Shown piece after piece: positions 1 to 40,982 of a stretch of 43,549 nucleotides of DNA. The position numbers were made by a program, and so were the translations under genes. The stretch is from a virus, in the IMG/VR virus record IMGVR_UViG_3300028901_000024, positions 1 to 43,549 of that record; one strand, given 5' to 3'. How positions within the stretch are numbered: position 1 is the first letter of the stretch; each line of letters opens with the position of its first letter. Below the pieces are notes generated by a model, which saw nothing but the letters and a program-made list of their open reading frames with translations, did not search any database and was not told the origin of the DNA.

Positions 1-141
1 CAGGTGCTCTCTGCTGGGCACACGCCGCAAGCAATATTAATGGTATAATAATCACATTTTTATTCATTGAGCCTTCTCCTATCTTGTTGGTTTAATGATC
101 TCCGCCTTGCGCCGGTAGATACGGTTGGTAGTTCTTGAATC
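1..141. repeat. Terminal redundancy copy 1 (identical to 43409-43549)
   Basis: Read directly: caggtgctctctgctggg...gttcttgaatc occurs at both ends. It lies inside coding DNA (lipoprotein gene 5' end and integrase 3' end). Confidence 0.98.
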
Positions 142-20092: not shown

Positions 20093-21243
20093 GGGTACTT
20101 CACATCTGCATCAACGACCCTGATTATCCTACTGGCGGCCTTGGCGTTGCGGTTAAAGGTATCACCGAGGCGCAGAAGAAAATCGGTGTCATTCCTTATG
20201 TGCTTTGTTTTGACGACAACCACCCGGAAGGCCGAAAAGAGGGCAATATCCTCTCCGTCAATATCGAGGGCGATACACCGCGCTTTGCTGACATGGGCTA
20301 CCACCGCTTGATCTGGCAGCGCATGGCGACACATCTATGCCATTACTGGAAGAACGAGCCGATAGACATCATTCACCTGCACGATTCATGGTTGTGGCCT
20401 GTAGCTGAGGTTGCGCAAGCCCTTTATGGTTGCCAGATAATTTACACAAACCATTTGTCATTTGCTGTCGAAAACATTGGCTGGCCTAAGTGGAACAAAG
20501 TATCGAGCGAAGAAGCACACCTTGAAATCAAATGTCTGACGCAAGCCTATAACACCTATGTTTCGCTACCCTATGCCCAGAAGATAATTGCGCAATACCA
20601 GCTTGACGATCTAATGCCAAACCGCCCGGCTGCGGTTATTCATAATGGCGTAAGCCCATTGGATGAAAGCGAGCAAATAAAACTTGAGGGCAAGAATGTG
20701 TATTTTTGCGGTCGGGCTGTTCCAACCAAAGGCATCAAGCTGGTGGTCGAAGCAGCGGAAAGACTGCCCGGTTACAACTTCCATGTGTTTGCTGCGGTAA
20801 GCAATGACCATAAGGGATTCGCTGAAACAGGCCGCTATCTTGAGTCGGCAGACATCTTGCTAGATAACTTCCACTGGCACAACGTACACACCGAAGCCCA
20901 GAAATGCGCGTATCTTCGGGCGTGTGATGTCGCCCTAGTTCCAAGCATCAACGCCGCACCGTTTGAAATCACCGGGCTTGAGGCCATGATTGCCGGAACG
21001 CCTCTAATCACTACGGCCATGTGCGGGATGCGCGACTATTGCAATGACGACAATTGCACGATTATTGAGCCAACCACAGACGCGCTGGTAGAAGCCATAG
21101 CAAACCATGTGCGCGACCAAGATAAAATACGCAAAGCCTACGACACGGCCAAAGCTTTTACTTGGGACGCTGCCGCCAGCAAATACAAACAATTCTATGA
21201 GAGGGTGCATGGGTTTAATTTACCAGCTAGACACGCCGCTTGA
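20089..21243 (+). CDS. GT-B fold glycosyltransferase (GT4-like)
   Basis: N-terminus RVLHICINDPDYPTGGLGV, and C-terminus VALVPSINAAPFEITGLEAMIAGTPLITT (E..E sugar-donor motif region). The start is ATGA-coupled. Confidence 0.85.
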   Translation: MRVLHICINDPDYPTGGLGVAVKGITEAQKKIGVIPYVLCFDDNHPEGRKEGNILSVNIEGDTPRFADMGYHRLIWQRMATHLCHYWKNEPIDIIHLHDSWLWPVAEVAQALYGCQIIYTNHLSFAVENIGWPKWNKVSSEEAHLEIKCLTQAYNTYVSLPYAQKIIAQYQLDDLMPNRPAAVIHNGVSPLDESEQIKLEGKNVYFCGRAVPTKGIKLVVEAAERLPGYNFHVFAAVSNDHKGFAETGRYLESADILLDNFHWHNVHTEAQKCAYLRACDVALVPSINAAPFEITGLEAMIAGTPLITTAMCGMRDYCNDDNCTIIEPTTDALVEAIANHVRDQDKIRKAYDTAKAFTWDAAASKYKQFYERVHGFNLPARHAA

Positions 21244-21568
21244 ATCGCCGGAAGGCGTTACGGTCACACATCTAAACATCTTCCGCAATGATTCGGAAAC
21301 CTACCGCCCGAATCCGCCGGATATGGTTGGTGTGCTGTTCGTTCCAAAGACCGACATTTATTTTGCCGCTTGCAATCCTGATGGCAGCGAAGTCACACAC
21401 CCAGACGCGCAAGGAAGGGATTTGCCAGTGCTTTCAACACTCAGGCGTTTTAAGTTTGGCGACCTCAACCAAGCACAGAAAGACGCGCATAAAGCTTTGC
21501 TTCGCGCTCATTATGAGTTCATGCAGGAAATGGGAGAACTACCGCCGGGGAGCATTATTGATGTTTGA
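21209..21568 (+). CDS. Hypothetical protein (119 aa)
   Basis: ATG after GAGAGGG. It overlaps the glycosyltransferase end by 35 nt and the methyltransferase start by 8 nt. Confidence 0.55.
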   Translation: MGLIYQLDTPLESPEGVTVTHLNIFRNDSETYRPNPPDMVGVLFVPKTDIYFAACNPDGSEVTHPDAQGRDLPVLSTLRRFKFGDLNQAQKDAHKALLRAHYEFMQEMGELPPGSIIDV

Positions 21569-22205
21569 AGTACGCGGTCAGAAGATAGCCCTGCAAAGTG
21601 GCAAGTCATTCGCCCAGATACTTGAGGAGATCAGGCTGGATGTGTACGACTTTGACCGCGTGGATATTAAAGACGGTGATGTCATTGTAGACATCGGCGC
21701 ACATATCGGCATTTTTGCTTGTTATGCCGCCGCTAAATATCCTAACGCCAAAGTATACGCTTTCGAGCCAGCCAAGGAAACCTTTGAAGATTTAAAAAAG
21801 AACGCTGCCGCGTACCCAAATATTACCGCCTTTAACTTTGGGGTATCGGATAAGCCAGAGATTGAAATCCAATATCTGCCCCACATGAATTACTCCACCT
21901 CTGGGTATTACAGTAAAGACGTAAACGGGGCGGTAAAAGAAAAAGTAAAATGCATGTCGTTAGACGAGATCATCGACATGGTGGGAAATATACGCTTCCT
22001 GAAAGTAGATTGCGAAGGTGCGGAATGGGACATTATCCCCAAATGCAAGCAATTAGATCGCGTTGAGTATCTAAGCTGTGAACTCCATACCGGGCTTCCA
22101 AACACCGATATGACGGCCTTTAAGCAGGCAATTAAACCACATTTTACGACAAAGAACTTTCGTGGTCATCGCGTTGAGAAAGAAGCCGCAGAAGGTTTAA
22201 CCTAA
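21561..22205 (+). CDS. FkbM-family SAM-dependent methyltransferase
   Basis: The motifs are VIVDIGAHIGIFACYAA, VYAFEP and FLKVDCEGAEWDI. The upstream part of the track ORF (21288-21560) overlaps the previous gene and is not needed. Confidence 0.85.
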   Translation: MFEVRGQKIALQSGKSFAQILEEIRLDVYDFDRVDIKDGDVIVDIGAHIGIFACYAAAKYPNAKVYAFEPAKETFEDLKKNAAAYPNITAFNFGVSDKPEIEIQYLPHMNYSTSGYYSKDVNGAVKEKVKCMSLDEIIDMVGNIRFLKVDCEGAEWDIIPKCKQLDRVEYLSCELHTGLPNTDMTAFKQAIKPHFTTKNFRGHRVEKEAAEGLT

Positions 22206-25944: not shown

Positions 25945-28386
25945 ATGCCTAACATTCGCTCGCTCGCTCGCTCATTTGCTGGTGGCGAAGTAACACCAGA
26001 GTTCTACGGTCAGATTGCCGATGCGAAGTTCCAGACAGGGCTCGCGCTTGCACGCAACGGCGTTATATTGCCCCACGGCCCGTGGGCTAATCGCGCTGGC
26101 CTAAGCTTCGTGCGAGAAGTAAAGGACTCGACCAAACGCACGCGCGTTATGCCTTTCTCCTATTCCACCAGCCAAACGTTTTCGCTGGAAATGGGCAATA
26201 CGTATTTCAGGTATCACACCAACGGCGCAACTCTCCTTGCCGGCTCGCCGGCGGCGTGGTCGAACGTCACGGCTTATGTTGTCGGCGATCTGGTATCTTA
26301 CCTTGGCACAAACTACTATTGCATCCTAGGACACACCAACCAAGTCCCACCCAACGCCACGTATTGGTATCCCTTACCAAGCGCGGCGTACGAGATACCG
26401 ACGCCGTTTGTCGAAGCTGATCTTTATGACATCCACTACGTGCAATCTGCTGACGTGCTTACGTTAGTGCATCCGAACTACAGCCCGCGCGAACTCCGGC
26501 GTTTAGGCGCTACGAAATGGACGCTGGTTGCCATATCGTTTGCTTCTGACCTTGCAGCACCGGGAAGTGTCGTGGCAACTCCAAGCGCAGTCGATACGAC
26601 GACCACTTACCGCTACGTGGTCACTGCGGTAGGTGATACCGGCATCGAAGAGTCGCTTGCCTCGAGCTCCGCAAGCTGCACGAACAACCTGCTCACCACC
26701 GGCCGCTACAACGACATCACTTGGGCGTCGGTAACTGGCGCGTCGCGCTACAATGTTTATAAACAGTCTAACGGCCTGTACGGCTATATCGGACAGACCG
26801 ACGCGCTCACGTTCCGCGACGACAACATCACAGCGGATATCAGCAAGACGCCGCCTATCCCTAACAATCCGTTCAGTGGCGCCGGTAACTACCCGGGCGC
26901 AGTCAGTTATTTTGAACAACGCAGGGGCTTTGCCGGCACCACCAACAAACCACAAAACCTGTGGCTGACACGCTCCGGCACTGAGTCGAACCTTGCTTAC
27001 TCCATCCCAACGCGCGACGACGACGCGATCAGCTTCCGTGTTGCTGCGCGTGAGGCAAACACCATCCGGCACATTGTACCGTTGCGTGAGCTTCTGTTGC
27101 TCACATCAAGTGCAGAGTGGCTAGTGACATCGGTAAACTCTGACGCGATTACTCCGACATCGGTTGCGGTGAAGCCCCAGTCGTACGTAGGTGCATCCAA
27201 TGTGCAGCTCGTTATTGTGAATAATAACGCAATTTATGTTGCCGCTCGTGGCGGGCACATACGCGAACTTGGTTATGACGCGCTCCGTTCGGGCGGGTAT
27301 GTGTCAGGCGACTTGTCGCTTCGTGCGCCACACCTCTTTGACGGCTACGACATCCTAGACATGTCTTACGCGAAAAGCCCGTATCCGATTATATGGGCGA
27401 CCAGCAGCAGCGGCGATCTGCTCGGTCTGACTTACGTGCCAGAACAACAGATCGGCGCGTGGCACCACCACGACAGTTACACGCTCGCTGGCAAAAGCTA
27501 CTTCGAGTCGTGCTGCGTTGTGGCAGAAGGTAGCGAAGATGCGCTCTATGTGGTGGTCAAACGCGTCATTAATGGTGCCACCAAACGTTATATTGAACGG
27601 TTGCACACACGCGTCTTTGCAACGTTGCAGGATGCGTATTTTGTTGACTCAGGCGCGACGTACGACGACCCAAAAACAATAAGCGGAGCCACGAAAGCGA
27701 ACCCTGTGGTCGTGACTTGTAACGCCCACGGCTTTAGCAACGGCGATAAGATCGACATTCTGGAAGTCGCTGGCATGACGCAGCTCAACGGGCTTCGGTA
27801 CAGAATTGCTAACGTGACGGCCAATACCTTCGAGTTACAGTCGGATGATGACACACCAGTAAACATCGACGGCACCAGCTTCTCGACGTACACGAGCGGA
27901 GGCAAAGCACGCAAGGCCGTTACCACCATTTCGTCGGGTATCAGCCATCTAGAAGGCGAGACGGTGAGTATCCTTGCAAACGGCGCAGTTTACCCGCAGC
28001 AGACAGTAACGGGCGGTGCTATCACGCTCGACCCTGCAGCCAGTGTCGTGCATGTAGGTCTTCCTATAACGGCCGATATGCAGACTCTGCCGCTTGCTTT
28101 CGAGGCCGAAGCGTTCGGGCAAGGCAGGGTAAAGAACGTGAATCAAGTGTGGTTACGCGTCTATCGGTCCAGCGGCATTTTTGCAGGTCCATCTTTCGAT
28201 AAACTGAAAGAAGCGAAACAGCGCACCACCGAACCGTACGGCACACCACCGTCGCTTAAGAGCGAAGAAATACCAATCGTGCTCACGCCGAACTGGGGAG
28301 ATACCGGTGCCGTGTGCGTACGGCAGTCAGACCCACTACCGCTCACCATCACGTCTATGACAGTAGAGGTTGCAATTGGCGCTTAA
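25945..28386 (+). CDS. Tail nozzle / tubular tail protein B-like, with CBM5/12-like and SH3-like insertions
   Basis: 813 aa, located after the adaptor. The insertions are AWSNVTAYVVGDLVSYLGTNYYCILGHTNQVPPNATYWYPL (26254-26376) and KANPVVVTCNAHGFSNGDKIDILEVAGMTQLNGLRYRI (27694-27840). Confidence 0.8.
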   Translation: MPNIRSLARSFAGGEVTPEFYGQIADAKFQTGLALARNGVILPHGPWANRAGLSFVREVKDSTKRTRVMPFSYSTSQTFSLEMGNTYFRYHTNGATLLAGSPAAWSNVTAYVVGDLVSYLGTNYYCILGHTNQVPPNATYWYPLPSAAYEIPTPFVEADLYDIHYVQSADVLTLVHPNYSPRELRRLGATKWTLVAISFASDLAAPGSVVATPSAVDTTTTYRYVVTAVGDTGIEESLASSSASCTNNLLTTGRYNDITWASVTGASRYNVYKQSNGLYGYIGQTDALTFRDDNITADISKTPPIPNNPFSGAGNYPGAVSYFEQRRGFAGTTNKPQNLWLTRSGTESNLAYSIPTRDDDAISFRVAAREANTIRHIVPLRELLLLTSSAEWLVTSVNSDAITPTSVAVKPQSYVGASNVQLVIVNNNAIYVAARGGHIRELGYDALRSGGYVSGDLSLRAPHLFDGYDILDMSYAKSPYPIIWATSSSGDLLGLTYVPEQQIGAWHHHDSYTLAGKSYFESCCVVAEGSEDALYVVVKRVINGATKRYIERLHTRVFATLQDAYFVDSGATYDDPKTISGATKANPVVVTCNAHGFSNGDKIDILEVAGMTQLNGLRYRIANVTANTFELQSDDDTPVNIDGTSFSTYTSGGKARKAVTTISSGISHLEGETVSILANGAVYPQQTVTGGAITLDPAASVVHVGLPITADMQTLPLAFEAEAFGQGRVKNVNQVWLRVYRSSGIFAGPSFDKLKEAKQRTTEPYGTPPSLKSEEIPIVLTPNWGDTGAVCVRQSDPLPLTITSMTVEVAIGA

Positions 28387-28833: not shown

Positions 28834-29376
28834 ATGTGCGACGCAAGTACGCTAGCCACAGCGTCTATCGGCGGTCAATCGGCTGGCGCTGCGGTTTCGA
28901 CGGTAGGGGCTTATTATGGCGCGAAATCGTCCAAGATCGCTCTTAATGCTCAGGCCAACATTGCAGACATCAACGCCCGTATCAGCGAGCTCAGCGCACA
29001 AAGCGAGCTCGAAGCTGGGCAACGCAAAGAGCAAGCTTCGCGATTGACTACCGCTAAAGTGAAAAGTTCGCAAAAAGCTGCTATGGCCGCTAACGGCATT
29101 GACCTTGGCAGCGACACGGCGGTCAACATCCAGACCACTACGGACGTGCTGGGTGAAGTAGACGCTAACACTATTGCAGCGAACGCAGCACGCAGTGCTT
29201 GGGGCTACCGCACACAAGGCGTCAACTTCAAGAACGACGCGCTTTTCAAACGCGCTTCAGCTGGGGCTATCAATCCTTGGATGGCCGCTGGGGGTACTTT
29301 ACTCACAAACGCCAGCAGCGTAGCCACTAACTGGTATCTGTTGAAGAAAGCCGGGGTGTGGGGCAATGCCAGCTAG
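28834..29376 (+). CDS. Internal virion/ejection protein (180 aa) starting MCD
   Basis: It has a Gly/Ala-rich hydrophobic N-terminus and then a coiled-coil segment. It is the first of three consecutive ejection-protein genes. Confidence 0.7.
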   Translation: MCDASTLATASIGGQSAGAAVSTVGAYYGAKSSKIALNAQANIADINARISELSAQSELEAGQRKEQASRLTTAKVKSSQKAAMAANGIDLGSDTAVNIQTTTDVLGEVDANTIAANAARSAWGYRTQGVNFKNDALFKRASAGAINPWMAAGGTLLTNASSVATNWYLLKKAGVWGNAS

Positions 29377-31606
29377 AGTTCCGACGTACGACAACTTTCA
29401 AGTAGCGCCTACCACGCTTCCTAACGTGCAAGTGAACGGCGCACCCAGCGTAGAGCAAGCGTCTTACACAGGCCGGCAGATGGAAGAAGCTGGACAGAAA
29501 CTTGTTTCGGGCGGGAGCCAGCTGGCTAAAATCCAGCTCGACGCCCAGCAACAAGCTAACCAGCTTCGTATCGCTGATGCGTTGAATCAAGCGAAAGAAA
29601 TGGAGTTCAAGCTCCGGTATGACAAAGACACAGGCTACGAAGCCGTAAAAGGCGTTGACGCGCTGCAGAGGCCAGAAGGCAAGCCACTCGCTGACGAGTA
29701 CGCCGATAAATACAAGCAATCTATCGAGAGCATTGCTAGCAAACTCGGGAATGACGAGCAACGCCGCGAGTTCATGCTCAGGGCGAACAACTCGCTGGTT
29801 GATTTTCACGGTCAGGCTATGGCCTACGAAGGAGCGCAGTTTAAAGAATATGCGCTTTCGGTGCATGAAGGCACGATTAAAAACTCAATGAACGATATCG
29901 GTCTTAACTACAACAACCCGGATGTAGTGAGTAAGAATATTGATTCTATCAAGGCGTCGGCGTACGAAGCAGCGAAGATGCAGGGTAAGTCCGCTACGTG
30001 GGCGGAGGCGCAGGCACGCCAGATGACCAGCGCAGCGCACCTGACCGCAGTCTCAGCAGCGTTGCAGAAAAACGACCCGGCTTTTGCAGATGATTACCTG
30101 AAGAAGTTTGCAAAGGACATGACAGCCGACGACATCCTGAAAGCCCGTGGCGCAACAACTAAAGAGCTGAACAATAAGCTCGCGATGAATACGGCCGCTA
30201 CCGTGGTTAATAAAGCAGTCCCTCGCATAGTTACAAGCGACAGCGAACGAGCGTTCAACATTGCTATAGGTTCAGAATCTTCTGGTAAACAGTTCGGAGG
30301 ACCGGGGAGTGTCGCAAAGCCGAACGAACCCACCACGTCGCCGAAAGGAGCAATCGGCATTGCGCAAGTCATGCCGGGGACTGCACCGGAGGCAGCGAAG
30401 CTTGCTGGTTTGGAGTGGGACGAAAAACGCTACCGCGAGGACCCAGAGTACAATCGTGCTCTCGGCAAAGCCTACTTCGATAAGCAACTCAAAGATTTTA
30501 ACGGTAACTTGCCGATGGCCTATGCTGCGTATAACGCAGGACCGGGTGCACTGCGTGAAGCGATTGAGAAAGCCAAGACCGACGGTGCTTACAAAGAAGT
30601 CACAAACCCCGACGGCTCGGTTAGCGGCGGGCGCACCGGTACTGGAAACTGGCTGGCGCATTTGCCTAAAGAGACGCAAGACTACGTTGAAAAAAACATG
30701 AAGGCTTTTGGCAATGGCTCAGGCCAGTACGCAAAACCGACGCTATACGAGCTGCAGCAGGAAGTACGCAAGACTGTTGGGTCTAACAATCCGGAAGGGC
30801 TGAAACTGGCTCTGGACGAAACCGAACGCCAGTACAACGACCTCATGAAGAGTGTCAAGATGCAGGAAGAAGAAGCCGTGGCGACCGCGATGCGTGCAGT
30901 GCAATCGAACGGCGGACGATTTACTGATCTCCCAGCGGACATACGCGGTGCAATACCGGCAGGAGAGGTCACGAAAGTGATGGACTTCGCCAGTCGGATT
31001 TCTAAAGGCGACGACACCACGAACTTGTGGCTTTACAATAAACTGGCGAGTAATCCTTCTGAACTGCAGAACTTGTCTGATGATCAATTCTTTGCGCTTC
31101 GAGCCGAACTGTCTGCGGGTGATTTCAAGCATTTTGCCGACACACGTGCAGAGCTGCTCAGCGGTGGGACAAACTCTCCCGGGACGCTCAATACGCAGAT
31201 GGTTAAGCTGGTGCTTGACGACCGGTTGCGCACAATGGGTATCGACCCCACACCGGCAGATGCAAGCTCTGAAGCACAACGTGTAGGTGCAATCCGTAAA
31301 TTCATTAACGACAGTATACTCGCTTCCCAGAGCGTTACCGGCAAGAAGATGAACGACGCGGAAGTATCACAGTTCGTTGATTCCATGTTTGCGAAGACCT
31401 CGGTCTATGATGGCTACATCTGGAATAGCAACGGGCCTATGCTGAAGATGAAAGCCGGCGACATACCGGGTGACGTTAAAGATAAGATCAAAGACGCTTT
31501 CAAAGCACGGGGCGTTGAAGATCCAACCGATGCTGACATCCTGAATGTATACTGGCGCCAGCTGACGCTTAAACCTACCCGCCGGCAGACGGCAGGAGTT
31601 TATTAA
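29366..31606 (+). CDS. Internal virion protein with a soluble lytic transglycosylase (SLT) domain
   Basis: The SLT signature is IGSESSGKQF (candidate catalytic Glu304, nt 30275)...GIAQVMPGTA...AYAAYNAGPGAL, spanning about 30260-30580. Confidence 0.9.
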   Translation: MPARVPTYDNFQVAPTTLPNVQVNGAPSVEQASYTGRQMEEAGQKLVSGGSQLAKIQLDAQQQANQLRIADALNQAKEMEFKLRYDKDTGYEAVKGVDALQRPEGKPLADEYADKYKQSIESIASKLGNDEQRREFMLRANNSLVDFHGQAMAYEGAQFKEYALSVHEGTIKNSMNDIGLNYNNPDVVSKNIDSIKASAYEAAKMQGKSATWAEAQARQMTSAAHLTAVSAALQKNDPAFADDYLKKFAKDMTADDILKARGATTKELNNKLAMNTAATVVNKAVPRIVTSDSERAFNIAIGSESSGKQFGGPGSVAKPNEPTTSPKGAIGIAQVMPGTAPEAAKLAGLEWDEKRYREDPEYNRALGKAYFDKQLKDFNGNLPMAYAAYNAGPGALREAIEKAKTDGAYKEVTNPDGSVSGGRTGTGNWLAHLPKETQDYVEKNMKAFGNGSGQYAKPTLYELQQEVRKTVGSNNPEGLKLALDETERQYNDLMKSVKMQEEEAVATAMRAVQSNGGRFTDLPADIRGAIPAGEVTKVMDFASRISKGDDTTNLWLYNKLASNPSELQNLSDDQFFALRAELSAGDFKHFADTRAELLSGGTNSPGTLNTQMVKLVLDDRLRTMGIDPTPADASSEAQRVGAIRKFINDSILASQSVTGKKMNDAEVSQFVDSMFAKTSVYDGYIWNSNGPMLKMKAGDIPGDVKDKIKDAFKARGVEDPTDADILNVYWRQLTLKPTRRQTAGVY

Positions 31607-34600
31607 TGGCTGACGATTTCGACCTCAACACAGCCGTTGATTCATACCTAAGCACTAAAGCACCCGGAGAACCGTTGGCGCAGGACAGTATGCGCTCAAG
31701 CTTGTCCGTAGCAGTGAAAACAAACCCTGACGCCCAAGCAGAAGCCCAACGCGTAGCAAGACGCACCGGCGTGCCGGTCGATACGGTGCTGGCTCAACCT
31801 GACGAGATGAAGAAGAAAGCGTTGCTTGGCGACATTGATTTCGATGCGTACGCCAAAGCCTACCCGGCGAGCGCCGACTTGTTATCTGATGTCGACTTTG
31901 CAAAGTTCGCCCACGACGATATCGACAACATGGGACAGATCGAAGGGGCGTTTGGTACGCTCAAAGCAGCGCACGGCCCTAAACCAAGCACAGGCTCGAC
32001 TGCCTATGGGCTCTTTTCTGCGCTCGGCACAGGCGCCGAGCTTACCAAGCAAGGTATCCGTGCCCAGTTTGCAGACGCCCTAGGTTGGAGCAGCCTATCT
32101 GCAGATGCCCAGCTCATGGCAGAACGGGCACGCTTTCGTCAGTTTCTTGTTGACCCAGCTTTCGAGTCATCGACGGCGCAAGGCCTATACAGTGGTGGTC
32201 GCAGCTTTGTGCAGATGCTTCCCGGTCTGGTGGGCTCTATCGCAACGCGCAAGCCTAACGTGGCTTTGGTTGCAGCCGGTCTTCAGACTGAAACGGATTC
32301 CTACACTAAGTACCGTGCGCGAGGCGCGTCGCCAGAAGAAGCAGTGATCGGTTCACTCGGTGAAGGTGCTATCGAGGTTGCTACTGAAAAACTGCCTATG
32401 GGTTTTCTTGTTGATAAACTCGGCAAAGTAGGTGCGGGCGAGTTTATCAAGGGGTTCTTAGGCCGTGAGCTCGCTGGTGAGGAACTGGCTACGGTAATGC
32501 AGGACGCTATCGACACAGCCGTTGCGAACCCCGACAAGACGTGGGGCGAGTATTTTGCCGAGCGTCCAGAAGCAGCCTACCAGACGGCACTTGCAACGCT
32601 TGTGCCTTCTGCACTCTTTGGTGGAGCAAACGAACTCGTTTACCGGCTGAACGGTGAATATGAGAAAGCAGCACGTGCAGACGCGAACGCGAAAGCCTTT
32701 GAGCAACTGAACCAGTTGGCTGCTGCGTCTAAGATAAAACAGCGCGACCCCGAAAACTTCAAAAGGTTCATAGATGCCGCCAACGAGAACGGCGTTGTGC
32801 AGGATGTTTACATAGACTTAAACGAACTTTCGCAATCGGGAATTGATATCAACGCACTGGCTCAGGCCTCCCCGAGCGCGGCGTTACAGATACCGAACGC
32901 GCTGACGTCAGGTACTGACGTTCGCATCCCGGTTTCAGAGTTTGCCACAGCTCTTGCCGGCACTGAACTTGGGCAGTCCCTTGTCGACCATTTGCGGACT
33001 GACCCGGAGGGGATGTCTCGTAAACAGGCAGCCGAGTTCTTGCAGACACAGGGCGACCAACTGCAGAGTGAAGTTGAAAAGGTACTCGCAGATAAGCAAG
33101 GTGATGACACTTTCAAAGCGTCGCGCGACAAGGTGTACGACAACGTGCTTGGGCAGCTAGGCGAAGCAAATCGCTTTACGGCAGACGTCAACGCGCCTTA
33201 CGCGTCACTTATGGCGAACTTCTACTCGGTACAGGCAGCTCGCCTCGGTATGACGCCCGAAGAGCTGTTCATTCAACACCCTGTGAAAATTCAAGCCGAA
33301 GCGACGACAGGTCCGCAACTCGACCAATCCGTGTTCCACGGCTCGCCTTATAAGTTCAGCAAATTCACACTGGACCATATCGGCAAAGGTGAAGGTGCTC
33401 AAGCCTATGGCTGGGGGCTGTACTTCACAACGAACAAGGATATTGCCGAGTTTTATCGTCAGTCCACCACGCAGAAGGGTATAGACACGGAGCTGTTGCG
33501 CTCTTCACTGGGCCAGTCGCTCGCGCCGGTTGCCCAGTCCGACCCGGCACGTGCAATTAAAGAATTGGAGTCGTACCTTGCCCGCGAGGACTTAGACCCC
33601 GCCGAGCGCGAGAACGCGGAGTACGACCTCGGCGTTATTGATCAGGCCGACACCGGTGCTGGGCAGGTCTACCAAGTAGAAATCCCTAATGACGATGTGC
33701 TGTTGCAATGGGATAAACCACTGGCCGATCAACCCCAGTCCGTGAAAGACGCGCTCGGTGTTGCCGAGACGTCGAGTAAAACCATTGTAGGGGGTCAGTA
33801 TTACCGGCAGTTGCAAAACGCACTGGGGTCCCCCGAGAAAGCGTCGCGGTATCTCAATTCCCTTGGCATACGCGGCCTTAAATATCCTGCGGATATGCAG
33901 AAAGGAAAGCGCGGCGAGAACGGCTATAATTTCGTTATTTTCGACGACAGTGCAGTAGATGTGCTCAGCACGTTCTACCAATCGCCGACAGAGAACAAAC
34001 CGGAGTTCTACAGCGCCCTGCAACGTAACCTCGAGAGTTTAAATCAGCCGAAAGGCTCGCCGGAACAGTGGGCCGGTATCATCAAGAACCTTACAAACAA
34101 AGGCGTAAAGCAGGAAGAGATTGACTGGACGGGTGTGCTGGACTGGCTGAAAGAGCAGAAAGGCAGTGTCACTAAGGAACAGGTACTCGACTATTTGCGG
34201 GCAACCGCAATCAGAGTCGAGGAGGTATTAAAACAACCTCAAATATCGCAGGAAGACGAAGACCTATTGGCAGAACTTGAAGATCGACCAGCGGACGTTA
34301 TGGGACCGCTTGCTGCTGGCGGTGAAACCAAGTTCGAGAAGTACACCCTACCCGGCGGTGAGAATTACCGCGAGCTGCTGATGACGTTGCCAGAGAATAC
34401 AAACGGGAGACCACGCGCAACAGCGCGAGAGTTGGCTGAATTGGCTGGTGACAACTGGGAAGAACTTGGCCCTAACGCAAGACAGCGTTACGAAGACCAG
34501 TCTAAGGCACGAGGCACAACCGGCAACTACAAGTCTGCCCACTACGACGAGCCCAACATTCTTGCGCACATCCGCTTCAACGAACGTAGAGACGCCGACG

Positions 34601-37600
34601 GTAAGCGGGTCATGTTTATCGAGGAAGTGCAAAGCGACTGGCACCAAGCGGGACGGGATAAGGGGTATAAAGTTGAAGGGGCTAGAAGCGTAAATGATGT
34701 TCAGCGAGAAATAGACGCTCTCTTGACGGAGTTTCGCTCGCGCCCCGGTGTGGACTACGCGCCGACGGAGGAGCAATGGAACGCAAACCCTGACATTAAA
34801 GCCCGTTTTGAAGATTTAGCAAAGCAACGTCAACAGGCTATTAATCTCTCGGGCGTACCCGACGCCCCTTTCAAAACGTCATGGCCTGAGCTTGCTTTCA
34901 AGCGTGCGCTGATGTGGGCGGTAGAAAATAACTTCGACCGCGTGGCGTGGACGACCGGCGAGCAGCAGGCCGAGCGTTATGATTTGTCGAAACACATTAA
35001 TTCTATCGGGTACCAGAAACGTGGCGAACTCTATAATGTCACCGTATGGGATAAGCAGGACGCCAAGGTATTAAGTAACCAATCAGCCGACAAGCAATGG
35101 CTGGTGGATAACATCGGCAAAGAGATGGCCGATAAGATTGAGCAGGGTACAGGCCGCAAAGACGGACAGTTCACCTATCTCGAAGACTTGGATCTTAAAG
35201 TCGGCGGCGAAGGCATGAAGGGCTTTTACGATAAGATGTTGCCCTCGATGGTTAACAAGCTGGTAAAGAAGTGGGGCGGGAAAGTTGGTCAAACCAAGAT
35301 ACGTAGCGGTTACGGAGTGGAAGAGGAAATCCGCGCTCGCATTGATGTAGACGGTGAGGTTACCGTCGAATGGGGCAGCAATGAGCGCCATTTCAAGACA
35401 GAAGCCGAAGCAGATGCGTTCATCAAAGAACTCAAAAGTGCTGTACCGGTCCACTCTCTCGACATCACACCGGCGATGCGCGACTCTATCCAGCAGGGCT
35501 TGCCACTATTCCAAGGCACCGGCGACATGCGCGGCAGCTTCAACCCCAGCTCGAGCACCATTACCCTACTTAGAGCGGCCGATCTATCTACCTTCTTGCA
35601 CGAATCCGGCCACTTCTTCCTCGAGACCATGAACAAGATCGCTTTGCAGGAAAACGCACCACCGGAGATTAAAGCCGACATGGAAACGGTATTTAACTGG
35701 TTCGGCGTCAAAGACCTTGCTGCATGGAACGCGCTGACGCTCGAACAACAACGACCATTCCATGAACAATTTGCACGGGGGTTTGAGGCGTATCTTTTTG
35801 AGGGCAACGCCCCAAGTATTGAGATGCGCGGCGTATTCCAACGTTTCCGGGCATGGCTGCTTAATGTCTACCAGTCCATGAAGAACTTGAACGTGAAGCT
35901 GAACGACGATGTACGCGGCGTGTTCGACCGGATGCTCGCGAGCTCCGAGCAGATCAAAGAAACCGAACAGCTCAGACGCTTCGAGCAGATGTTCAAGGAC
36001 GCAAAAGAAGCTGGAATGAACGAAGCTGAGTGGAAAGAGTATCAGGCGCTCGCAAACCAAGCGACGCAAGATGCTATCTCAAACCTCGAAACCCGCTCGC
36101 TGCGTGACATGAAGTGGCTGAGCAACAAACGCAGCCGTGTGCTGCGTGACCTGCAACGCGATGCCCGCACCAAACGCAAAGCGGTACGGAAAGAAGTCTC
36201 AGACCAAGTGATGCAGGAGCCGGTATATCAGGCAAAGAATTTCCTTAAACGCCGCAAAGTAGTCGGCGAAGAGGCTGACGCTGTGGCCGAGATGTTCGGC
36301 TTCACATCCGGCGACCATCTGAACAAGGCGCTGGCTGAAGCCGAGAACATGAACGATAAGATCGAGGCGCTCACCGATCAACGCATGTTGGAACGTTACG
36401 GCGACCTCACCGACCCGACAACTATCGCCCGGGCTGCTGACGCGGCCGTACACAACGAAGCCCGCACACGGTTTATCGCAACCGAAATGAACGCGTTGCA
36501 GAAGGCCGTTGGTGGTCGTAAAATCCTTGCGTCGGCTGCTAAGGAGTACGCCCAGATCATCGTCAACCGTCTGCGTATCCGCGACCTCAAACCCACGCAA
36601 TACACCGCTGCGGAAGTAAGAGCGGCAAAAGCTTCTGAAAAGGCACGCGCTGAAGGCGACTTGCAGCGGGCAGCGGTCGAGAAGCGTAACCAGCTGATAC
36701 AGAACTACGCGACACGCGCGGCGTATGACGCACAAGCTGACATTGAGAAGGGTCTGCGTTACCTGCAGAAGTTCAGCAGCGAGAGCCGGCGTAAAAGTAT
36801 TGATACCGATTACCTCGACCAGATCGACGCGCTGCTCGACCGTTTCGACCTGCGCAAGAACGTTTCGCTTAAAGCGATCGACAAACGCAAATCGCTCGCT
36901 GCATGGGTCGCAGACCAAGAAGCTATGGGTTTAGAGCCGGAGATCGACCCGGCTATTCTCGACGAAGCCAACCGCAAACACTACAAGGATATGACGGTTG
37001 AAGAGATGCGCGGGCTACTCGATACTGTTCGCCAGATCGAGCACCTCGGCCGGTTGAAGAACAAACTGCTGACCGCTAAAGATAACCGGGATTTCGCAAC
37101 GACCGTTGAGCGTTTGGTTCAGTCCATCGAAGCTGAAGCCGGGGGTAAGGTCGCCAACAACCAGACCCGGGCGAATAACACTGATCGAGCTATCCGATTG
37201 TTCAAAGGTTTCCTTGCTTCCCACCGGAAGGTGTCAAGCCTCGTGCGCGAGCTGGATGGTTTCAAAGACGGCGGGCCAATGTGGGAAACCTTCGTGCGCA
37301 CCATGAATGAAGCGGGCGACCGCGAAGCGTCCATGCGCGAGGAAGCAACCAAGAACCTAGCCGGTATCGTCACACCGGTTGTTAAGGCCGGTAAAATGGG
37401 TGGGAAGGGAATTTACTTCGACACTATTGGTCGCAGTTTGAACCGCGAGGAACGTATCGGCATAGCCCTCAACATGGGTAACCTCGGTAACTACCAGCGC
37501 CTGTTAGACGGCGAAGGTTGGACGCCGCAACAGATCGCACCGGTGCTTGATAGCCTGACAAAAGAGGACTGGGATTTTGCACAAAAGGTCTGGGATTTCT

Positions 37601-39120
37601 TTGAGACATATCGGCCGCAGATTGCAGCAAAAGAAAAAAGAATTTACGGCAAAGAGCCGAACTGGGTCGAGCCTCACCCTGTCACCACTAAGTTTGGCGA
37701 ATACCGAGGAGGTTACTATCCTATCAAGTACGATAGCCGTCGTAGTGCTGCAGCAGAGCAGTTCAATGATGCCGAGACAGCAAAACAGCAGCTACGTGGC
37801 GCTTTCACCAGCTCGACCACACGTCGCAGCTTTACCAAGGCGCGTGCCGACGAGGTAAAGAATCGTCCGTTGCTTTACTCGCTCGATGGCCTTTTCCAAG
37901 GTGTCAACGAGGTTATCCACGATTTATCGTGGCATGAGTGGTTGATCGACGCTAACCGCCTGATGCGCAGCCGTTCGCTCGACAACGCCATCCGGTCACG
38001 TTACGGCGCCGAGGTTGTCGGTCAGTTCAAGTCCGCGATCACCGATATCGCAGCCGGTGAGATGCCCGCCAACGACGCGTTGGAGAAAGTGCTTGGCTCT
38101 TTGCGTACAGGCTCGATGGTTGCGAGCATGGGCTTTAACATCATGAACTCCATCATCAACACCACCGGCGTCACGCAGTCTATGGTGCGTATCGGTCCGA
38201 AGTGGGTCGCGATGGGGGTTGGTGAATGGGCGCGTAACCCGCGTGCGTTAGCACGAACGATACACGAGAAATCAGAATTTATGCGCTTGCGTTCGCAGAC
38301 TCAGCTGCGCGAGATAAACGAAATACGAAGCAGGGTGCAAGGCAAGACCGAGACGCGTGCTGCAGTTGACCGTGCCATGTTCTTCCCGTTAGCACTCACC
38401 CAGCTCGCAGTCGACACCCCAACATGGTGGGGTGCTTACCAGAAGGCGCTTGTCGATGGTAACGAAGACGCGCGTGCTGTGGCTCTGGCAGACCAAGCGG
38501 TGTTGGACTCACAAAGCGGCGGGCAGATCAAAGACCTCGCAGCTATCCAGCGCGGCGGTCCCGTTCGCAAACTGCTCACCACCTTCTATGGTTACTTCTC
38601 GTCCACGTACAACCTGTCGGTCGAAGCTGCAAAAAAGACAGACTTCAAAGACCCTCTGTCCGTGATGCGTTTAGGTGGCGATTACCTGTTGCTTTACAGC
38701 ATACCGGCTGCGCTGGGCACGCTCCTTAAAGCTGCGCTTACCGGTGGGGATGACTGGGACGACCCGGAAAAGTTGGCAAAGAAACTGGCTAACGATCAGA
38801 TAAGCTACATGCTCGGTACGGTGGTGGGGCTTCGTGAAGTGACCGGTGCGGTACAAAAAGCTGTTGGCGTCCAGCAGTTCGACTCTGCATACGGAGGCCC
38901 CGCCGGGTTGCGGTTCTTCCAAGAAATAGACAAGCTCGGCCAGCAGGTAGGCCAAGGTGAGCTCGACAGGGCGTTGATGCGTTCTGTCATCAACGTTGCC
39001 GGCGTCACCATGCACCTGCCATCAACGCAGATTAACCGCACAATAGACGGTATCGCCGCGCTCTCGGACGGTCGCACAAACAACCCACTCACACTGCTTA
39101 CCGGAGCTCCGCCGAAATAG
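31606..39120 (+). CDS. Giant (2504 aa) internal virion/ejection polyvalent protein with an ART-like block and an HExxH zincin motif
   Basis: One uninterrupted ORF whose start overlaps the upstream stop (TAATG). VFHGSPYKFSKFTLDHIGKGEGAQAYGWGLYFT...YNFVIFDDSAVDVL covers aa 576-787. FLHESGHFFLE is the HExxH motif (aa 1332-1336, nt 35599-35613). Hydrophobic helices lie near the C-terminus. Confidence 0.9.
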   Translation: MADDFDLNTAVDSYLSTKAPGEPLAQDSMRSSLSVAVKTNPDAQAEAQRVARRTGVPVDTVLAQPDEMKKKALLGDIDFDAYAKAYPASADLLSDVDFAKFAHDDIDNMGQIEGAFGTLKAAHGPKPSTGSTAYGLFSALGTGAELTKQGIRAQFADALGWSSLSADAQLMAERARFRQFLVDPAFESSTAQGLYSGGRSFVQMLPGLVGSIATRKPNVALVAAGLQTETDSYTKYRARGASPEEAVIGSLGEGAIEVATEKLPMGFLVDKLGKVGAGEFIKGFLGRELAGEELATVMQDAIDTAVANPDKTWGEYFAERPEAAYQTALATLVPSALFGGANELVYRLNGEYEKAARADANAKAFEQLNQLAAASKIKQRDPENFKRFIDAANENGVVQDVYIDLNELSQSGIDINALAQASPSAALQIPNALTSGTDVRIPVSEFATALAGTELGQSLVDHLRTDPEGMSRKQAAEFLQTQGDQLQSEVEKVLADKQGDDTFKASRDKVYDNVLGQLGEANRFTADVNAPYASLMANFYSVQAARLGMTPEELFIQHPVKIQAEATTGPQLDQSVFHGSPYKFSKFTLDHIGKGEGAQAYGWGLYFTTNKDIAEFYRQSTTQKGIDTELLRSSLGQSLAPVAQSDPARAIKELESYLAREDLDPAERENAEYDLGVIDQADTGAGQVYQVEIPNDDVLLQWDKPLADQPQSVKDALGVAETSSKTIVGGQYYRQLQNALGSPEKASRYLNSLGIRGLKYPADMQKGKRGENGYNFVIFDDSAVDVLSTFYQSPTENKPEFYSALQRNLESLNQPKGSPEQWAGIIKNLTNKGVKQEEIDWTGVLDWLKEQKGSVTKEQVLDYLRATAIRVEEVLKQPQISQEDEDLLAELEDRPADVMGPLAAGGETKFEKYTLPGGENYRELLMTLPENTNGRPRATARELAELAGDNWEELGPNARQRYEDQSKARGTTGNYKSAHYDEPNILAHIRFNERRDADGKRVMFIEEVQSDWHQAGRDKGYKVEGARSVNDVQREIDALLTEFRSRPGVDYAPTEEQWNANPDIKARFEDLAKQRQQAINLSGVPDAPFKTSWPELAFKRALMWAVENNFDRVAWTTGEQQAERYDLSKHINSIGYQKRGELYNVTVWDKQDAKVLSNQSADKQWLVDNIGKEMADKIEQGTGRKDGQFTYLEDLDLKVGGEGMKGFYDKMLPSMVNKLVKKWGGKVGQTKIRSGYGVEEEIRARIDVDGEVTVEWGSNERHFKTEAEADAFIKELKSAVPVHSLDITPAMRDSIQQGLPLFQGTGDMRGSFNPSSSTITLLRAADLSTFLHESGHFFLETMNKIALQENAPPEIKADMETVFNWFGVKDLAAWNALTLEQQRPFHEQFARGFEAYLFEGNAPSIEMRGVFQRFRAWLLNVYQSMKNLNVKLNDDVRGVFDRMLASSEQIKETEQLRRFEQMFKDAKEAGMNEAEWKEYQALANQATQDAISNLETRSLRDMKWLSNKRSRVLRDLQRDARTKRKAVRKEVSDQVMQEPVYQAKNFLKRRKVVGEEADAVAEMFGFTSGDHLNKALAEAENMNDKIEALTDQRMLERYGDLTDPTTIARAADAAVHNEARTRFIATEMNALQKAVGGRKILASAAKEYAQIIVNRLRIRDLKPTQYTAAEVRAAKASEKARAEGDLQRAAVEKRNQLIQNYATRAAYDAQADIEKGLRYLQKFSSESRRKSIDTDYLDQIDALLDRFDLRKNVSLKAIDKRKSLAAWVADQEAMGLEPEIDPAILDEANRKHYKDMTVEEMRGLLDTVRQIEHLGRLKNKLLTAKDNRDFATTVERLVQSIEAEAGGKVANNQTRANNTDRAIRLFKGFLASHRKVSSLVRELDGFKDGGPMWETFVRTMNEAGDREASMREEATKNLAGIVTPVVKAGKMGGKGIYFDTIGRSLNREERIGIALNMGNLGNYQRLLDGEGWTPQQIAPVLDSLTKEDWDFAQKVWDFFETYRPQIAAKEKRIYGKEPNWVEPHPVTTKFGEYRGGYYPIKYDSRRSAAAEQFNDAETAKQQLRGAFTSSTTRRSFTKARADEVKNRPLLYSLDGLFQGVNEVIHDLSWHEWLIDANRLMRSRSLDNAIRSRYGAEVVGQFKSAITDIAAGEMPANDALEKVLGSLRTGSMVASMGFNIMNSIINTTGVTQSMVRIGPKWVAMGVGEWARNPRALARTIHEKSEFMRLRSQTQLREINEIRSRVQGKTETRAAVDRAMFFPLALTQLAVDTPTWWGAYQKALVDGNEDARAVALADQAVLDSQSGGQIKDLAAIQRGGPVRKLLTTFYGYFSSTYNLSVEAAKKTDFKDPLSVMRLGGDYLLLYSIPAALGTLLKAALTGGDDWDDPEKLAKKLANDQISYMLGTVVGLREVTGAVQKAVGVQQFDSAYGGPAGLRFFQEIDKLGQQVGQGELDRALMRSVINVAGVTMHLPSTQINRTIDGIAALSDGRTNNPLTLLTGAPPK

Positions 39121-39179: not shown

Positions 39180-40982
39180 ATGACCATTAACACCGATAAC
39201 CGTTTAGCAGGGCCGTTCAACGGAAACGGGGTTCAGACCGTATTTCCGTTCACGTTCAAGGCTTTTGCCGACACCGACTTCGACGGTAAAGTCGTGCTCA
39301 AAGACGCGAGCGGCGTCGAGACCATACAGACCCGCACCTCGCAGTACACGATAGCCCTTAACGCTGACCAGAACGTATCCCCCGGCGGCAACCTCACAAT
39401 GGTCACTGCGCCCCCGACCGGTACAACACTCACCTTCACGACCAACGTACCGAACACGCAGAAAACAAACATCACCAACACCGGTGGGTTCTTCGCGCAG
39501 GTTGTAACCACTGCGCTTGACAAGTTGACAATCCTTATTCAGCAGCTCGCAGGTCGGGTAGACCGCTCGATCAAGATACCGCTCTCAGATGGCACCAGCG
39601 TAACTACAGAACTCCCAACCAAGACCGCACGTGCCAACTCTACGTTGGGCTTCGATGCGAACGGCGATCTAATCGTAGGTGCAGTATCAACGGCAAACGT
39701 AAGTACAGCGATGCAACCTGTACTGGCCGCTTCCACCCTATCTCTCGCACGTGCGGCACTGGGTGCGACGTCTGTCGGAGACAGCCTGTTTACAGCGGCA
39801 AGCGCGAGCACTGCATTGACGTTACTTGGGTTCTCGGCTTTTACACAGACGCTCGCACCGGCTGCTAATGCTGCGGCGTTCCGTTCACTCATCGGGGCGC
39901 AGGCGGCGGGTAGCTACGCCGCGTCTGGCGCTAACGGTGACATCACCTCCATGACGGCGCTTGCTTCCATGAACGGGGGGCAGCTGGCAGGTTTCCGCAA
40001 CTTTATCATCAACGGCGGATTCGACGTATGGCAACGCGGCACCACTTACTCCCTCGCAACGAGCGCGGTGGTAGGGTCTGCCGATAGATGGGCGGTACAA
40101 GGTGGTGCAGCCGCCGGCATATTTAACAGAGACACCTCTGTCAGCGCAGGTAGCGGATTCACCTACAACGCAAAGATGGGGCGCAATAACGGTTCTTCGT
40201 CCACCACTCAGATATTGGCGCTACAGGCTTTAGAAACCATAAACTCAGTGCCGCTTGCGGGTAAAACGGTAACGCTATCTTTCCTTGCGAAACGTGGCGC
40301 CAACTTCTCTGGTGCAAGCAACAACCTTAACGTTACACTTTATGTCGGTACTGGCGCGGACCAGTCTGCGCAAAATGCCATTAACGGTTCTTGGACGGGG
40401 CAGTCCTTGGTCATCAGCTCAACCGCAGCACTCACTACATCTTTCCAGCAATTCACGTACACAGCAACGGTGCCTTCTAACACCACGCAGCTCGCGGTGC
40501 AGTTAGGTTATACACCTTCCGGTACCGCTGGCGCTGACGATAACGTCTACTTCACTGGCGTACAACTAGAGATCGGTTCAGTAGCAACGCCGTTTGAAAA
40601 TATAGGTTTTGACAATACTCTGAAGCGTTGCGAACGCTACTATGAGAAAGGCTTTGATTATGCGACTGCACCCGCCGACGGGTCGGCCAGTTTTTGGAAC
40701 GGTGGTTCCAACGGCGTGTTAGCTTATGTCGCGAATAACCTACGTACACCTGCAGTGCAGTTTAGAACAAAGAAACGCGCTACACCGACAATTACACTGT
40801 ATCGCCCGGGAACTACTGCCACGGCTGGCGCTTTAGCTTTTTACAACGGTTCTTGGACAGCCATGACCGGCGCTTCAATTTCTACAAACCAAGATACATT
40901 CACGGTTTATTCTACAGCAACTTCCACAGCAAATCAGGTCTATATGTTTGATGGTGGTTGGGCTGCATCAGCGGAGTTGTGA
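39180..40982 (+). CDS. Tail fibre / receptor-binding protein
   Basis: The N-terminus is [21 protein letters not shown]. The C-terminal jelly-roll-type motifs are [27 protein letters not shown] and [11 protein letters not shown] (recollection of fibre families). Confidence 0.85.

Follow-up and report, generated by a model that had tools for sequence, protein, structure and literature searches.

A cassette-like cargo slot in the giant, putative ejection protein of a BPP-1-like temperate podovirus

Introduction

The ejection proteins of podoviruses are usually regarded as builders of a conduit. Within this group, IVP-D proteins, the class of internal virion protein (IVP) represented by T7 gp16, have been described as hosts of cytoplasm-destined domains, and their subgroups have been linked by joins between hidden Markov models (HMM-HMM joins; Hardies 2016, PMC4819975). 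In polyvalent proteins, the ADP-ribosyltransferase (ART) is the commonest protein-modifying domain and the metallopeptidase (MPTase) is the hub domain (Iyer, Burroughs, Anand, de Souza and Aravind 2017, PMC5512222). Bbp10 of Bordetella phage BPP-1 is listed as an IVP-D (T7 gp16) homologue of the epsilon15 subgroup (Hardies 2016, PMC4819975). Residues 700-1000 of Bbp10 are a seed of the putative zincin family CLCA_X (Lenart et al. 2013, PMC3650047), which was tied to the CLCA_N metalloproteases via FFAS and HHalign and has the consensus HExxHxxxD (PMC3650047). Here we analyse IMG/VR record IMGVR_UViG_3300028901_000024 (positions 1 to 43,549; this whole stretch is called the window below), a complete podovirus-type genome of roughly 43.5 kb, and in it a giant open reading frame (ORF) of 2504 amino acids (aa). 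The phage is a BPP-1-like temperate podovirus, and the product of the ORF is the largest of its predicted internal virion proteins, which would be ejected. It is probably an ejection protein of the gp16/IVP-D class, from the epsilon15 group, built as a carrier for injected enzymes.

Orthology and organization of the giant protein

Compared at near-DNA level with 50,697 phage records, the ORF had no match. By tblastn, 64 phage records were matched, in every case over only about 70% of the query, with the Bordetella phages BPP-1, BMP-1 and BIP-1 (47%) and the Caulobacter Rauchvirus phages (42%) at the top. The BPP-1 homologue, Bbp10, has 2052 aa; its gene is flanked by those for Bbp11 (SLT protein) and Bbp9 (tail fibre). 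In BLASTP the N terminus aligned with Bbp10 from query aa 28 onward at 38% identity, and query aa 1301-2497 aligned with Bbp10 aa 766-2044 at 51% identity; no alignment was obtained for the middle. An identical protein is encoded on a 43.4-kb Logan contig from the assembly of run SRR10823761, and related prophages were found in Rhodospirillaceae, Limnohabitans, Propionivibrio, Rhodocyclaceae, Thauera and other Proteobacteria.

The gene has the synteny of an IVP-D gene, closing, as its last large gene, the internal-virion-protein block that follows tubular tail B (nozzle), and the context of a polyvalent-protein gene, sitting between an SLT internal virion protein and a tail fibre. Within 2504 aa the protein joins LPD22, ART-PolyVal-like and HExxH domains, where two effector-type or LPD domains are enough to mark a polyvalent protein. 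A first-pass annotation, made from the sequence without database searches, had called it a polyvalent ejection protein; that identity is borne out by an LPD22 domain scoring over its Pfam cutoff and by orthology to Bbp10, an IVP-D protein according to PMC4819975. The link of the giant protein to T7 gp16 runs through Bbp10, since that is the protein which Hardies 2016 lists as IVP-D. The parts of the protein, in window coordinates, are the following.

31606-39120, plus strand: the whole ORF, probable IVP-D/gp16-class polyvalent ejection protein; a single ATG ORF of 2504 aa plus stop
31606-33315, plus strand: conserved N-terminal scaffold, aa 1-570; from segment searches, present also in prophage relatives
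31702-31968, plus strand: LPD22 domain, aa 33-121; Pfam PF18834, E 2.5e-21, 76.1 bits against a cutoff of 28.6
33325-33981, plus strand: divergent ART-PolyVal-like domain, aa 574-792, with putative triad H578, Y606 and D780; from Pfam, hhalign and motif conservation
33994-35514, plus strand: 'MID' module, aa 797-1303, with EEVQSDWHQ, WTTGEQQAERYDL and GGEGMKGFYD; from homologues and predicted structure
35524-36015, plus strand: zincin-like HExxH domain, 'ZN', aa 1307-1470, first in the conserved C-terminal part; from alignments and the CLCA_X and MPTase literature
35599-35613, plus strand: HExxH (HESGH), aa 1332-1336, then E1340 (HExxHxxxE); the only HExxH in the protein
35761-35793, plus strand: second acidic helix HEQFARGFEAY, aa 1386-1396; E1387 and E1394 invariant in alignment A7
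35986-39117, plus strand: conserved C-terminal body (IVP-D core), aa 1461-2504; PHROG 9880 on aa 1554-2494, 1590 bits
38686-38742, plus strand: sole clearly hydrophobic segment, aa 2361-2379 (LLLYSIPAALGTLLKAALT); Kyte-Doolittle 1.52 in a 19-residue window

A conserved scaffold with a variable slot

Segment searches with local HMMs built from checked alignments covered the 147 best family representatives together with the sequenced phage relatives and 15 relatives from prophages. Every set had the framework N1-N2-variable-ZN-C1-C2, in which a hypervariable cargo slot (aa 572-1303 in the window) is followed by a conserved C-terminal part (aa 1305-2504) with the HExxH domain first. Among about 154 family proteins scanned, aa 300-570 were detected in 137 and aa 1-300 in 109, and LPD22 is shared with Bbp10 and with gp037c of Caulobacter phage BL94. 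The start of ZN varies from residue 280 to residue 2728, and its distance to the C terminus is constant across the family, near 1267 aa. A ZN profile matched 11,544 cluster representatives (clustering at 50% identity) at E<=1e-3, 6,476 of them at E<=1e-30; the best 150 matches are nearly all 1,800-3,300 aa long. The scaffold family is already in PHROGs, as 9880, function unknown.

The slot contents, as Pfam assignments, are given below; L-numbered loci are prophage relatives.

Bbp10: PBECR1 (aa 643-729)
BL94: canonical ART-PolyVal, E 6e-22
L016 (C-terminal part 72% identical): MuF_C
L017: ART-PolyVal and PBECR5
L018: LPD3 and ART-PolyVal
L020: ASCH
L021: ART-PolyVal
L026: PBECR5
L027: PBECR3 and ART-PolyVal
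L031: PBECR3
L019 and L022: no recognisable domain
P0264, P0293 and L033: no cargo, the N region being joined straight to ZN

The slot is cassette-like, with content that differs even among close relatives. Its domains are the effectors that Iyer 2017 (PMC5512222) described in polyvalent proteins, and LPD22 likewise comes from their set.

Some relatives are larger or internally repeated. P0304, a family representative of 2496 aa, has four matched HExxH-domain stretches, at least two of them with identical upstream sequence, which suggests a recent internal duplication. A relative from Microcystis phage Mel-JY33 (L006:460-12498) has 4012 aa, with MID fragments and ZN, and gp31 of Pseudomonas phage USP_18 (L013) has 4947 aa, with ART-PolyVal, so that the 2504-aa protein is mid-sized for its class.

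The HExxH domain

The HExxH of ZN lies within STFLHESGHFFLE (aa 1328-1340). It is not a chance occurrence, since only 0.018 would be expected from the protein's own composition and 157 of the 158 homologous family domains keep the motif. The residue at +4 after it is acidic in 154/157 (E in 143, D in 11), and the second acidic motif is retained in 150 of the 158 domains. Candidates for a third, acidic zinc ligand are E1340, at the +4 place as in CLCA_X, and E1387 and E1394 on the following predicted helix. The ZN consensus reads RG-x-f...TI-x-LL-x-x-ADLSTFLHESGHFFLE ... HE-x-FARGFEAYL-x-EGKAPS ... F-x-RFRAWL. A word-indexed search found 86 ZN homologues, some of which are fused to PBECR3, LPD3 or ART-PolyVal. 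As for the CLCA_X seed, aa 1301-1460 fall inside the 51%-identity BLASTP segment that runs from Bbp10 aa 766 onward. The widespread phage-type MPTase likewise carries an acidic residue shortly after HExxH, and its superfamily has a second C-terminal helix with a conserved Glu (PMC5512222).

A structure predicted for aa 790-1480 (model 1) came from a multiple sequence alignment that was misaligned at aa 1022-1303, and is usable only at aa ~799-879 and ~1319-1479. In this model aa 1319-1479 are helical, with a predicted local distance difference test (pLDDT) score >90, and the HExxH and HEQFARGFEAY each sit on a long helix, that of the HExxH being predicted at 1327-1347 with pLDDT >90. The model is helical from aa 1317, and the segment upstream (RGSF..TITLL) has pLDDT <50. 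Against PDB sequences the ZN profile (A2) found nothing credible; taken together, the PDB searches with the ART (A1), ZN, MID (A6) and whole-family (A9) profiles brought up gp41 and designed helical proteins at E >0.1.

The HExxH metallopeptidase motif named in the first-pass annotation is therefore conserved in orthologues, whereas a zincin fold (a three-stranded sheet with one N-terminal and two C-terminal helices) was not recovered by structure or Pfam searches. The candidate zincin is strong at the level of the motif; at the level of the fold, the case comes from the literature. ZN is part of the invariant scaffold and not of the variable cargo, standing directly downstream of whatever cargo is present.

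The ART-like domain

The first cargo domain of the window contains the stretch beginning VFHGSPYKF (aa 576-608, nt 33331-33429) and NGYNFVIFDDSAVDVL (aa 772-787, ending at nt 33966). It has 97 full-length homologues, mostly stand-alone proteins of ~300 aa, and most carry a precomputed match to PF18760 (ART-PolyVal). Ten that we rescanned scored 25.6-31.5 bits against PF18760, mainly over the N half, with side matches to the ART-clan families DUF3990 and Exotox-A_cataly. Canonical ART-PolyVal was represented by an alignment (A8) of BL94 and six other phages, three of which are family relatives with the domain in the slot. In hhalign, the window-type ART alignment (A5) matched it with probability 96.2% and E 2.4e-9 over 46 columns of the N half, which include the HGS and GxYF(T/A) motifs. 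In the C half there was no significant alignment; the motif order matches, with LYxVxxP corresponding to VMPVYL, GIxGxKY to GYDGVI and NFVIFD to YVVFDP. A profile of the domain (A1) found nothing credible among PDB sequences, tankyrase-2 being best at E 9.4.

ART-PolyVal is defined by a triad of H (strand 1), Y (strand 2) and D (strand 5) (Iyer 2017, PMC5512222). In the window's domain, H578 (HGS) corresponds to the YHGT, Y606 (GLYFT) to the YFT and D780 (VIFDD) to the VVFDP of canonical domains, the D780 assignment coming from motif correspondence without significant alignment. Among same-subtype ART domains within giant proteins, H578 and Y606 are each kept in 24/24 and D780 in 22/26; the subtype is present in about 25 of the 147 IVP-D family representatives. 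The ART similarity proposed in the first pass is supported (Pfam E 1.7e-5, besides the hhalign match), but its guessed H-Y-E residues give way to H-Y-D. We regard the block as a divergent ART-PolyVal relative with an apparently intact catalytic-type triad, formally outside the Pfam family by score.

The domain could instead be an NAD+ glycohydrolase, a nucleic-acid modifier (DarT- or RNA-targeting-like) or a counter to NAD+-based defence. The ART superfamily does include NADases and DNA- and RNA-modifying enzymes (PMC9503650), and the window's subfamily has an insert of ~100 aa between the Y motif and an extra motif, WDKPL (D703 in 26/26), that is absent from canonical ART-PolyVal. ART-PolyVal is, however, classed with protein-modifying enzymes, by inference only (Iyer 2017, PMC5512222), and we consider such an alternative activity rather unlikely.

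The MID module

The 'further conserved-looking blocks' of the first-pass annotation are one discrete unit of ~500 aa, MID, with EEVQSDWHQ at aa 1006, WTTGEQQAERYDL at aa 1115 and GGEGMKGFYDKMLP at aa 1200. Its homologues number at least 3765, and among the best 120 (E 1e-77 to 1e-100) nearly all are proteins of 530-890 aa with no Pfam domain. The homologues cover aa 797-1303 and end 12-35 residues past the equivalent of PLFQ(1303). MID also exists as a separate gene in thousands of podovirus contigs, mostly uncultured aquatic ones. It occurs in about 11/147 IVP-D family representatives and is rare among cultured phages (5/50,697 records). MID had no match in Pfam, PHROG, NCBIfam or PDB sequences.

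Two of its settings outside the giant family stand out. On the freshwater JGI metagenome contig 3300002835, which is T7-like, MID is a separate 749-aa gene (L004:10001-12250), and the internal-virion-protein block runs nozzle gene, 164-aa gene, 537-aa gene, MID gene, 951-aa gene; certain podoviruses would thus possess at least four internal-virion-protein genes in a row. The 2387-aa protein XAI97106.1 (L043:3871-11034), from the Dolichospermum jumbo phage Dfl-JY45, has a canonical ART-PolyVal followed by two tandem MIDs (aa 712-1222 and 1654-2155), without this type of HExxH domain, so that the ART-then-MID order recurs outside podoviruses.

In a verified alignment (A6), 36 columns are invariant, mostly polar or aromatic, and about 65 are near-invariant. 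The invariant residues include E923, H988, R990, N992, R994, E1006, E1007, Q1009, S1010, D1011, H1013 and Q1014, and further R1100, T1116, Q1121, R1124, K1172, Y1208 and D1209. An AlphaFold2 model of MID is a mixed alpha/beta structure (pLDDT 87, predicted template modelling score (pTM) 0.82), in which a beta-strand/GGEGMxGFYD/helix loop is reminiscent of CoA- or nucleotide-binding loops. Foldseek of this model against the PDB gave nothing at E<=1e-3. BFVD yielded 27 significant matches; every one is an uncharacterised protein from uncultured Caudovirales, and the labels of some read ART-PolyVal-like, LPD-containing or LT_GEWL-containing.

Several enzyme folds were considered for MID. The top Foldseek PDB matches were GNATs (SSAT, HAT1 and Eis-type), at only E 0.05-0.6, with probability <=0.51 and template modelling (TM) score <=0.30, and 0/55 MID proteins matched a GNAT Pfam family at E<=1; we therefore reject a GNAT assignment. 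The GNAT trend, weak but consistent across two Foldseek libraries, is a lead only. Readings of the motifs as PD-(D/E)xK or ASKHA were ideas from the sequence, with no tool result in support, and were dropped.

MID might alternatively be a structural segment of the ejectosome, a fused extra piece of IVP-C/IVP-D-like protein. This would suit its occurrence as a separate 600-800-aa gene between gp15-like and gp16-like genes in T7-like contigs, and the lack of a significant enzyme-fold match and of a Pfam family. Yet the conserved columns are rich in E, D, H, R, Q, N and K and in glycine-loop motifs, and are therefore typical of active sites; the predicted fold is mixed alpha/beta and globular, unlike the mostly helical internal virion proteins; two copies adjoin an ART domain in one jumbo-phage polyvalent protein; and few of the family representatives have it at all. 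A purely structural MID seems to us a minority prospect. MID is a module of polyvalent proteins that lacks an earlier description, and the pattern of its conserved residues is suggestive of an enzyme.

Domain junctions and processing

Both cargo modules of the window end in [LF][FY]Q, with FYQ at aa 790-792 (33973-33981) and LFQ at aa 1301-1303 (35506-35514). In the family alignments (A2/A7), RG occurs upstream of the HExxH helix in 156/157 members, whatever domain precedes it. A hydrophobic-aromatic-Gln tripeptide, followed by two to eight residues and then RG, is found in 71/157; with this count, '[LF][FY]Q' as a universal junction was rejected. Stand-alone MID proteins end shortly past the same PLF(Q), at the 12-35 aa given above. 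The junction could mark where the protein is processed, or could be no more than the N-terminal strand or edge of the ZN domain. We tentatively suggest that MID may be a new family of injected enzymes and that the HExxH domain might cut '...[LF][FY]Q x(2-8) RG...' after ejection, freeing ART and MID into the cytoplasm.

Other roles for the HExxH domain bear on this suggestion. Instead of releasing cargo as a self-protease, it could act before or during packaging, in a maturation cleavage as proposed for P1 DdrB, or on host proteins. All these options are listed in Iyer 2017 (PMC5512222), N4 vRNAP is packaged unprocessed despite its MPTase region, and the hhQ part of the junction motif is confined to the 71 members just mentioned. 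The invariable place of the domain, directly after the slot and the near-universal RG segment, fits a polyprotein-linked role better, and a host-directed effector would be expected to vary like other cargo. We regard these other roles as less likely.

Proposed delivery of the cargo

On the T7/IVP-D paradigm (PMC4819975), the giant protein would be packaged in the capsid core alongside the gp14-like and SLT proteins, would leave through the tail at infection, and its C-terminal body would contribute to a trans-envelope conduit. Because the slot domains are ARTs and RNases, the cargo is expected to act in the cytoplasm, which it would enter before or together with the DNA. There the ART domain would use NAD+ for modifying a host macromolecule, and MID would carry out a second reaction. 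The HExxH domain most likely acts on its own polyprotein, releasing or activating cargo, rather than being a variable effector, because it is present in essentially every family member irrespective of cargo. Release or activation of cargo has been proposed for the metallopeptidases of polyvalent proteins (Iyer et al. 2017, PMC5512222), and it is from this proposal that we take self-processing. Injection and an effector role would fit the variable effector cargo in the slot of relatives. In this picture the domain boundaries, homologies, conserved residues and variable slot are observed, whereas packaging, ejection, catalysis, substrates and self-cleavage are inferred.

Several observations weigh against this picture. 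Similarity to T7 gp16 was undetectable by phmmer and by the family profile against PDB sequences, among which the presence of a T7 gp16 chain was unchecked; the matches obtained, a mannosidase at E 0.67 and a Q-rich Sec62, are not credible. The ART-like domain scores 26.1 bits against PF18760 (E 1.7e-5), below the gathering score of 31.2, and this match spans only model positions 9-48 of 140, with only the N half aligning significantly. For ZN, Foldseek of model 1, built on the partly misaligned alignment, gave nothing at E<=1e-3, none of its 50 best hits was a zincin, and no Pfam zincin family matched, Peptidase_M78 at E 0.063 in 2 members being the only hit. Direct similarity to N4 gp50 was not found by HMM or jackhmmer, and hhalign of ZN (A7) with the N4-type HExxH region (A10) was weak (36.4%, E 3.7e-4), over 106 columns that place HExxH on HExxH. 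A membrane role is backed by one clearly hydrophobic segment only (aa 2361-2379). The 'several hydrophobic helices' that the first-pass annotation saw in the last ~350 aa were accordingly overstated: that one stretch is clear, and the other two, aa 2162-2189 (~0.95) and aa 2252-2270 (1.0), are weak on the same Kyte-Doolittle scale. Literature searches gave no virion mass spectrometry, cleavage or enzymatic activity for the protein or its close relatives.

If the protein were purely structural, its ART-like, MID and HExxH regions would be dead relics adding mass or length to the ejectosome or core. A conduit-type scaffold is common to all family members, stand-alone MID genes are located among internal-virion-protein genes, and the ART and zincin assignments are without fold-level confirmation, the former also being under its Pfam threshold. 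The catalytic-type residues are nevertheless almost invariant across very divergent members, and the slot of relatives holds recognised nuclease and ART effector domains or is absent altogether; where absent, the slot is evidently dispensable for a structural role. We therefore hold a purely structural protein to be improbable, and keep to an ejection protein that probably carries injected enzymes.

Gene neighbourhood and genome

The ORF proved to be, as first proposed, a single 7.5-kb frame that comes last in the internal-virion series, in the order GNAT, gp14-like, SLT, giant protein; all ten peptides quoted in the first-pass annotation were located where it had placed them. The start codon shares bases with the stop of the preceding SLT gene, as TAATG, and has AGGAG 8 nt before it. 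On the plus strand the structural order is tubular tail A, nozzle, GNAT, gp14-like, SLT protein, giant ORF and tail fibre. The neighbours of the ORF are the following.

25945-28386, plus strand: nozzle (tubular tail B) protein, 813 aa
28370-28831, plus strand: GNAT acetyltransferase at the IVP-A position, between the nozzle and gp14-like genes; Pfam Acetyltransf_1, E 8e-14
28834-29376, plus strand: gp14-like internal virion protein, 180 aa; PHROG 418 'internal virion protein', E 2.3e-29
29366-31606, plus strand: 746-aa internal virion protein with an SLT lytic transglycosylase domain, at the IVP-C position; Pfam SLT, E 7e-17, and PHROG 10475
39180-40982, plus strand: tail fibre gene, downstream of the giant ORF

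The 180-aa gp14-like protein matched Pfam T7_gp14 at E 1.6e-4 and 22.1 bits, under the 27-bit cutoff. A GNAT gene at the IVP-A position is accounted for, since the acetyltransferase family described by Hardies 2016 (PMC4819975) includes T7 IVP-A. The nozzle protein contains E1_FCCH (aa 586-656, E 4e-11) and the carbohydrate-binding module CBM_5_12 (aa 104-134, E 1e-6), which are unusual decorations for such a protein.

The left arm is mostly on the minus strand and encodes an integrase, an SNF2 helicase, a family A DNA polymerase, a DUF2800 nuclease and a primase-VapE protein. The integrase is of the tyrosine type (79-1158, minus strand; Phage_integrase, E 3.8e-9), which indicates a temperate phage. 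Between the portal and major-capsid genes are a GT4-family glycosyltransferase (20089-21243, plus strand; Glycos_transf_1, E 7.5e-18) and an FkbM-type methyltransferase (21288-22205, plus strand; Methyltransf_21, E 1.1e-13). This pair looks like a moron-type insert in the structural module, perhaps with a role in surface-polysaccharide or virion modification. Among the ORFs scanned downstream of the tail fibre there was no reverse transcriptase or diversity-generating retroelement (DGR) cassette, unlike in BPP-1.

Comparison with known systems

For the window alone, the result is one more family member with an unusual cargo combination, and no new principle. Across the family (11,544 cluster representatives at 50% identity), the largest ejection protein would double as a delivery vehicle, and the cassette-style exchange of payload between close relatives would be the signature of an arms race with host defences. 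BPP-1 is cultivable and genetically tractable and has the same scaffold, so that questions on substrates, cleavage and MID function are directly testable there.

Bbp10 (NP_958679, annotated as 'crystallin beta/gamma motif-containing protein') resembles the window's protein in its post-SLT, pre-tail-fibre position, its N-terminal LPD22, and the presence of STFLHESGHFFLE and HEQFARGFEAYLFEG within the 51%-identity segment aa 1301-2497. It differs in having 2052 aa and, in the slot, a PBECR1 RNase-like domain instead of ART and MID; BPP-1 also has a DGR cassette, and none was seen in the window. The Rauchvirus proteins of the Caulobacter phage BL94 / Jess A gp037c type share the same scaffold, with an ART in the slot. 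Theirs is canonical and compact and matches the full model (E 6e-22), whereas the window's has the ~100-aa insert and matches the first ~50 model positions only; BL94 lacks MID.

Like the polyvalent proteins (Iyer et al. 2017, PMC5512222), the giant protein is large, virion-associated by its context, and combines ART-PolyVal, LPD and HExxH metallopeptidase domains. MID, however, is not among the Pfam models that came from that work (no LPD match), and the HExxH domain is fixed in the IVP-D scaffold, whereas theirs is one movable module among many. CLCA_X (PMC3650047), a family defined by profile comparison only, without biochemistry, ends its HExxHxxxD consensus in D, whereas the window and 143/157 family domains have HExxHxxxE. 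Coliphage N4 vRNAP, gp50, is similar according to the literature, with a cytoplasm-bound enzyme inside an IVP-D homologue (Hardies 2016, PMC4819975) and an HExxH MPTase region that follows the cargo (Iyer 2017, PMC5512222); there the cargo is an RNA polymerase.

T7 gp16 is likewise the last and largest of consecutive internal-virion-protein genes after the nozzle, with an SLT domain in the set and a presumed ejectosome role. At 1318 aa, it carries the SLT itself, whereas in the window the SLT is in the preceding gene. T4 Alt offers a functional analogy, being an ART that is carried in the virion and enters the cell along with the DNA (PMC9503650); it belongs to another ART clade (Alt/VIP2, R-S-E type) and is a separate small protein of a myovirus, and we claim no homology beyond the superfamily. 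Set beside these systems, the principle was already published in 2016-2017, with IVP-D proteins carrying cytoplasm-destined domains and with polyvalent proteins, and the zincin motif of the orthologue in 2013. New here are a family member with an unusual pair of cargo domains, cassette-like turnover of the slot, and, as the most original element, MID as a widespread unannotated module.

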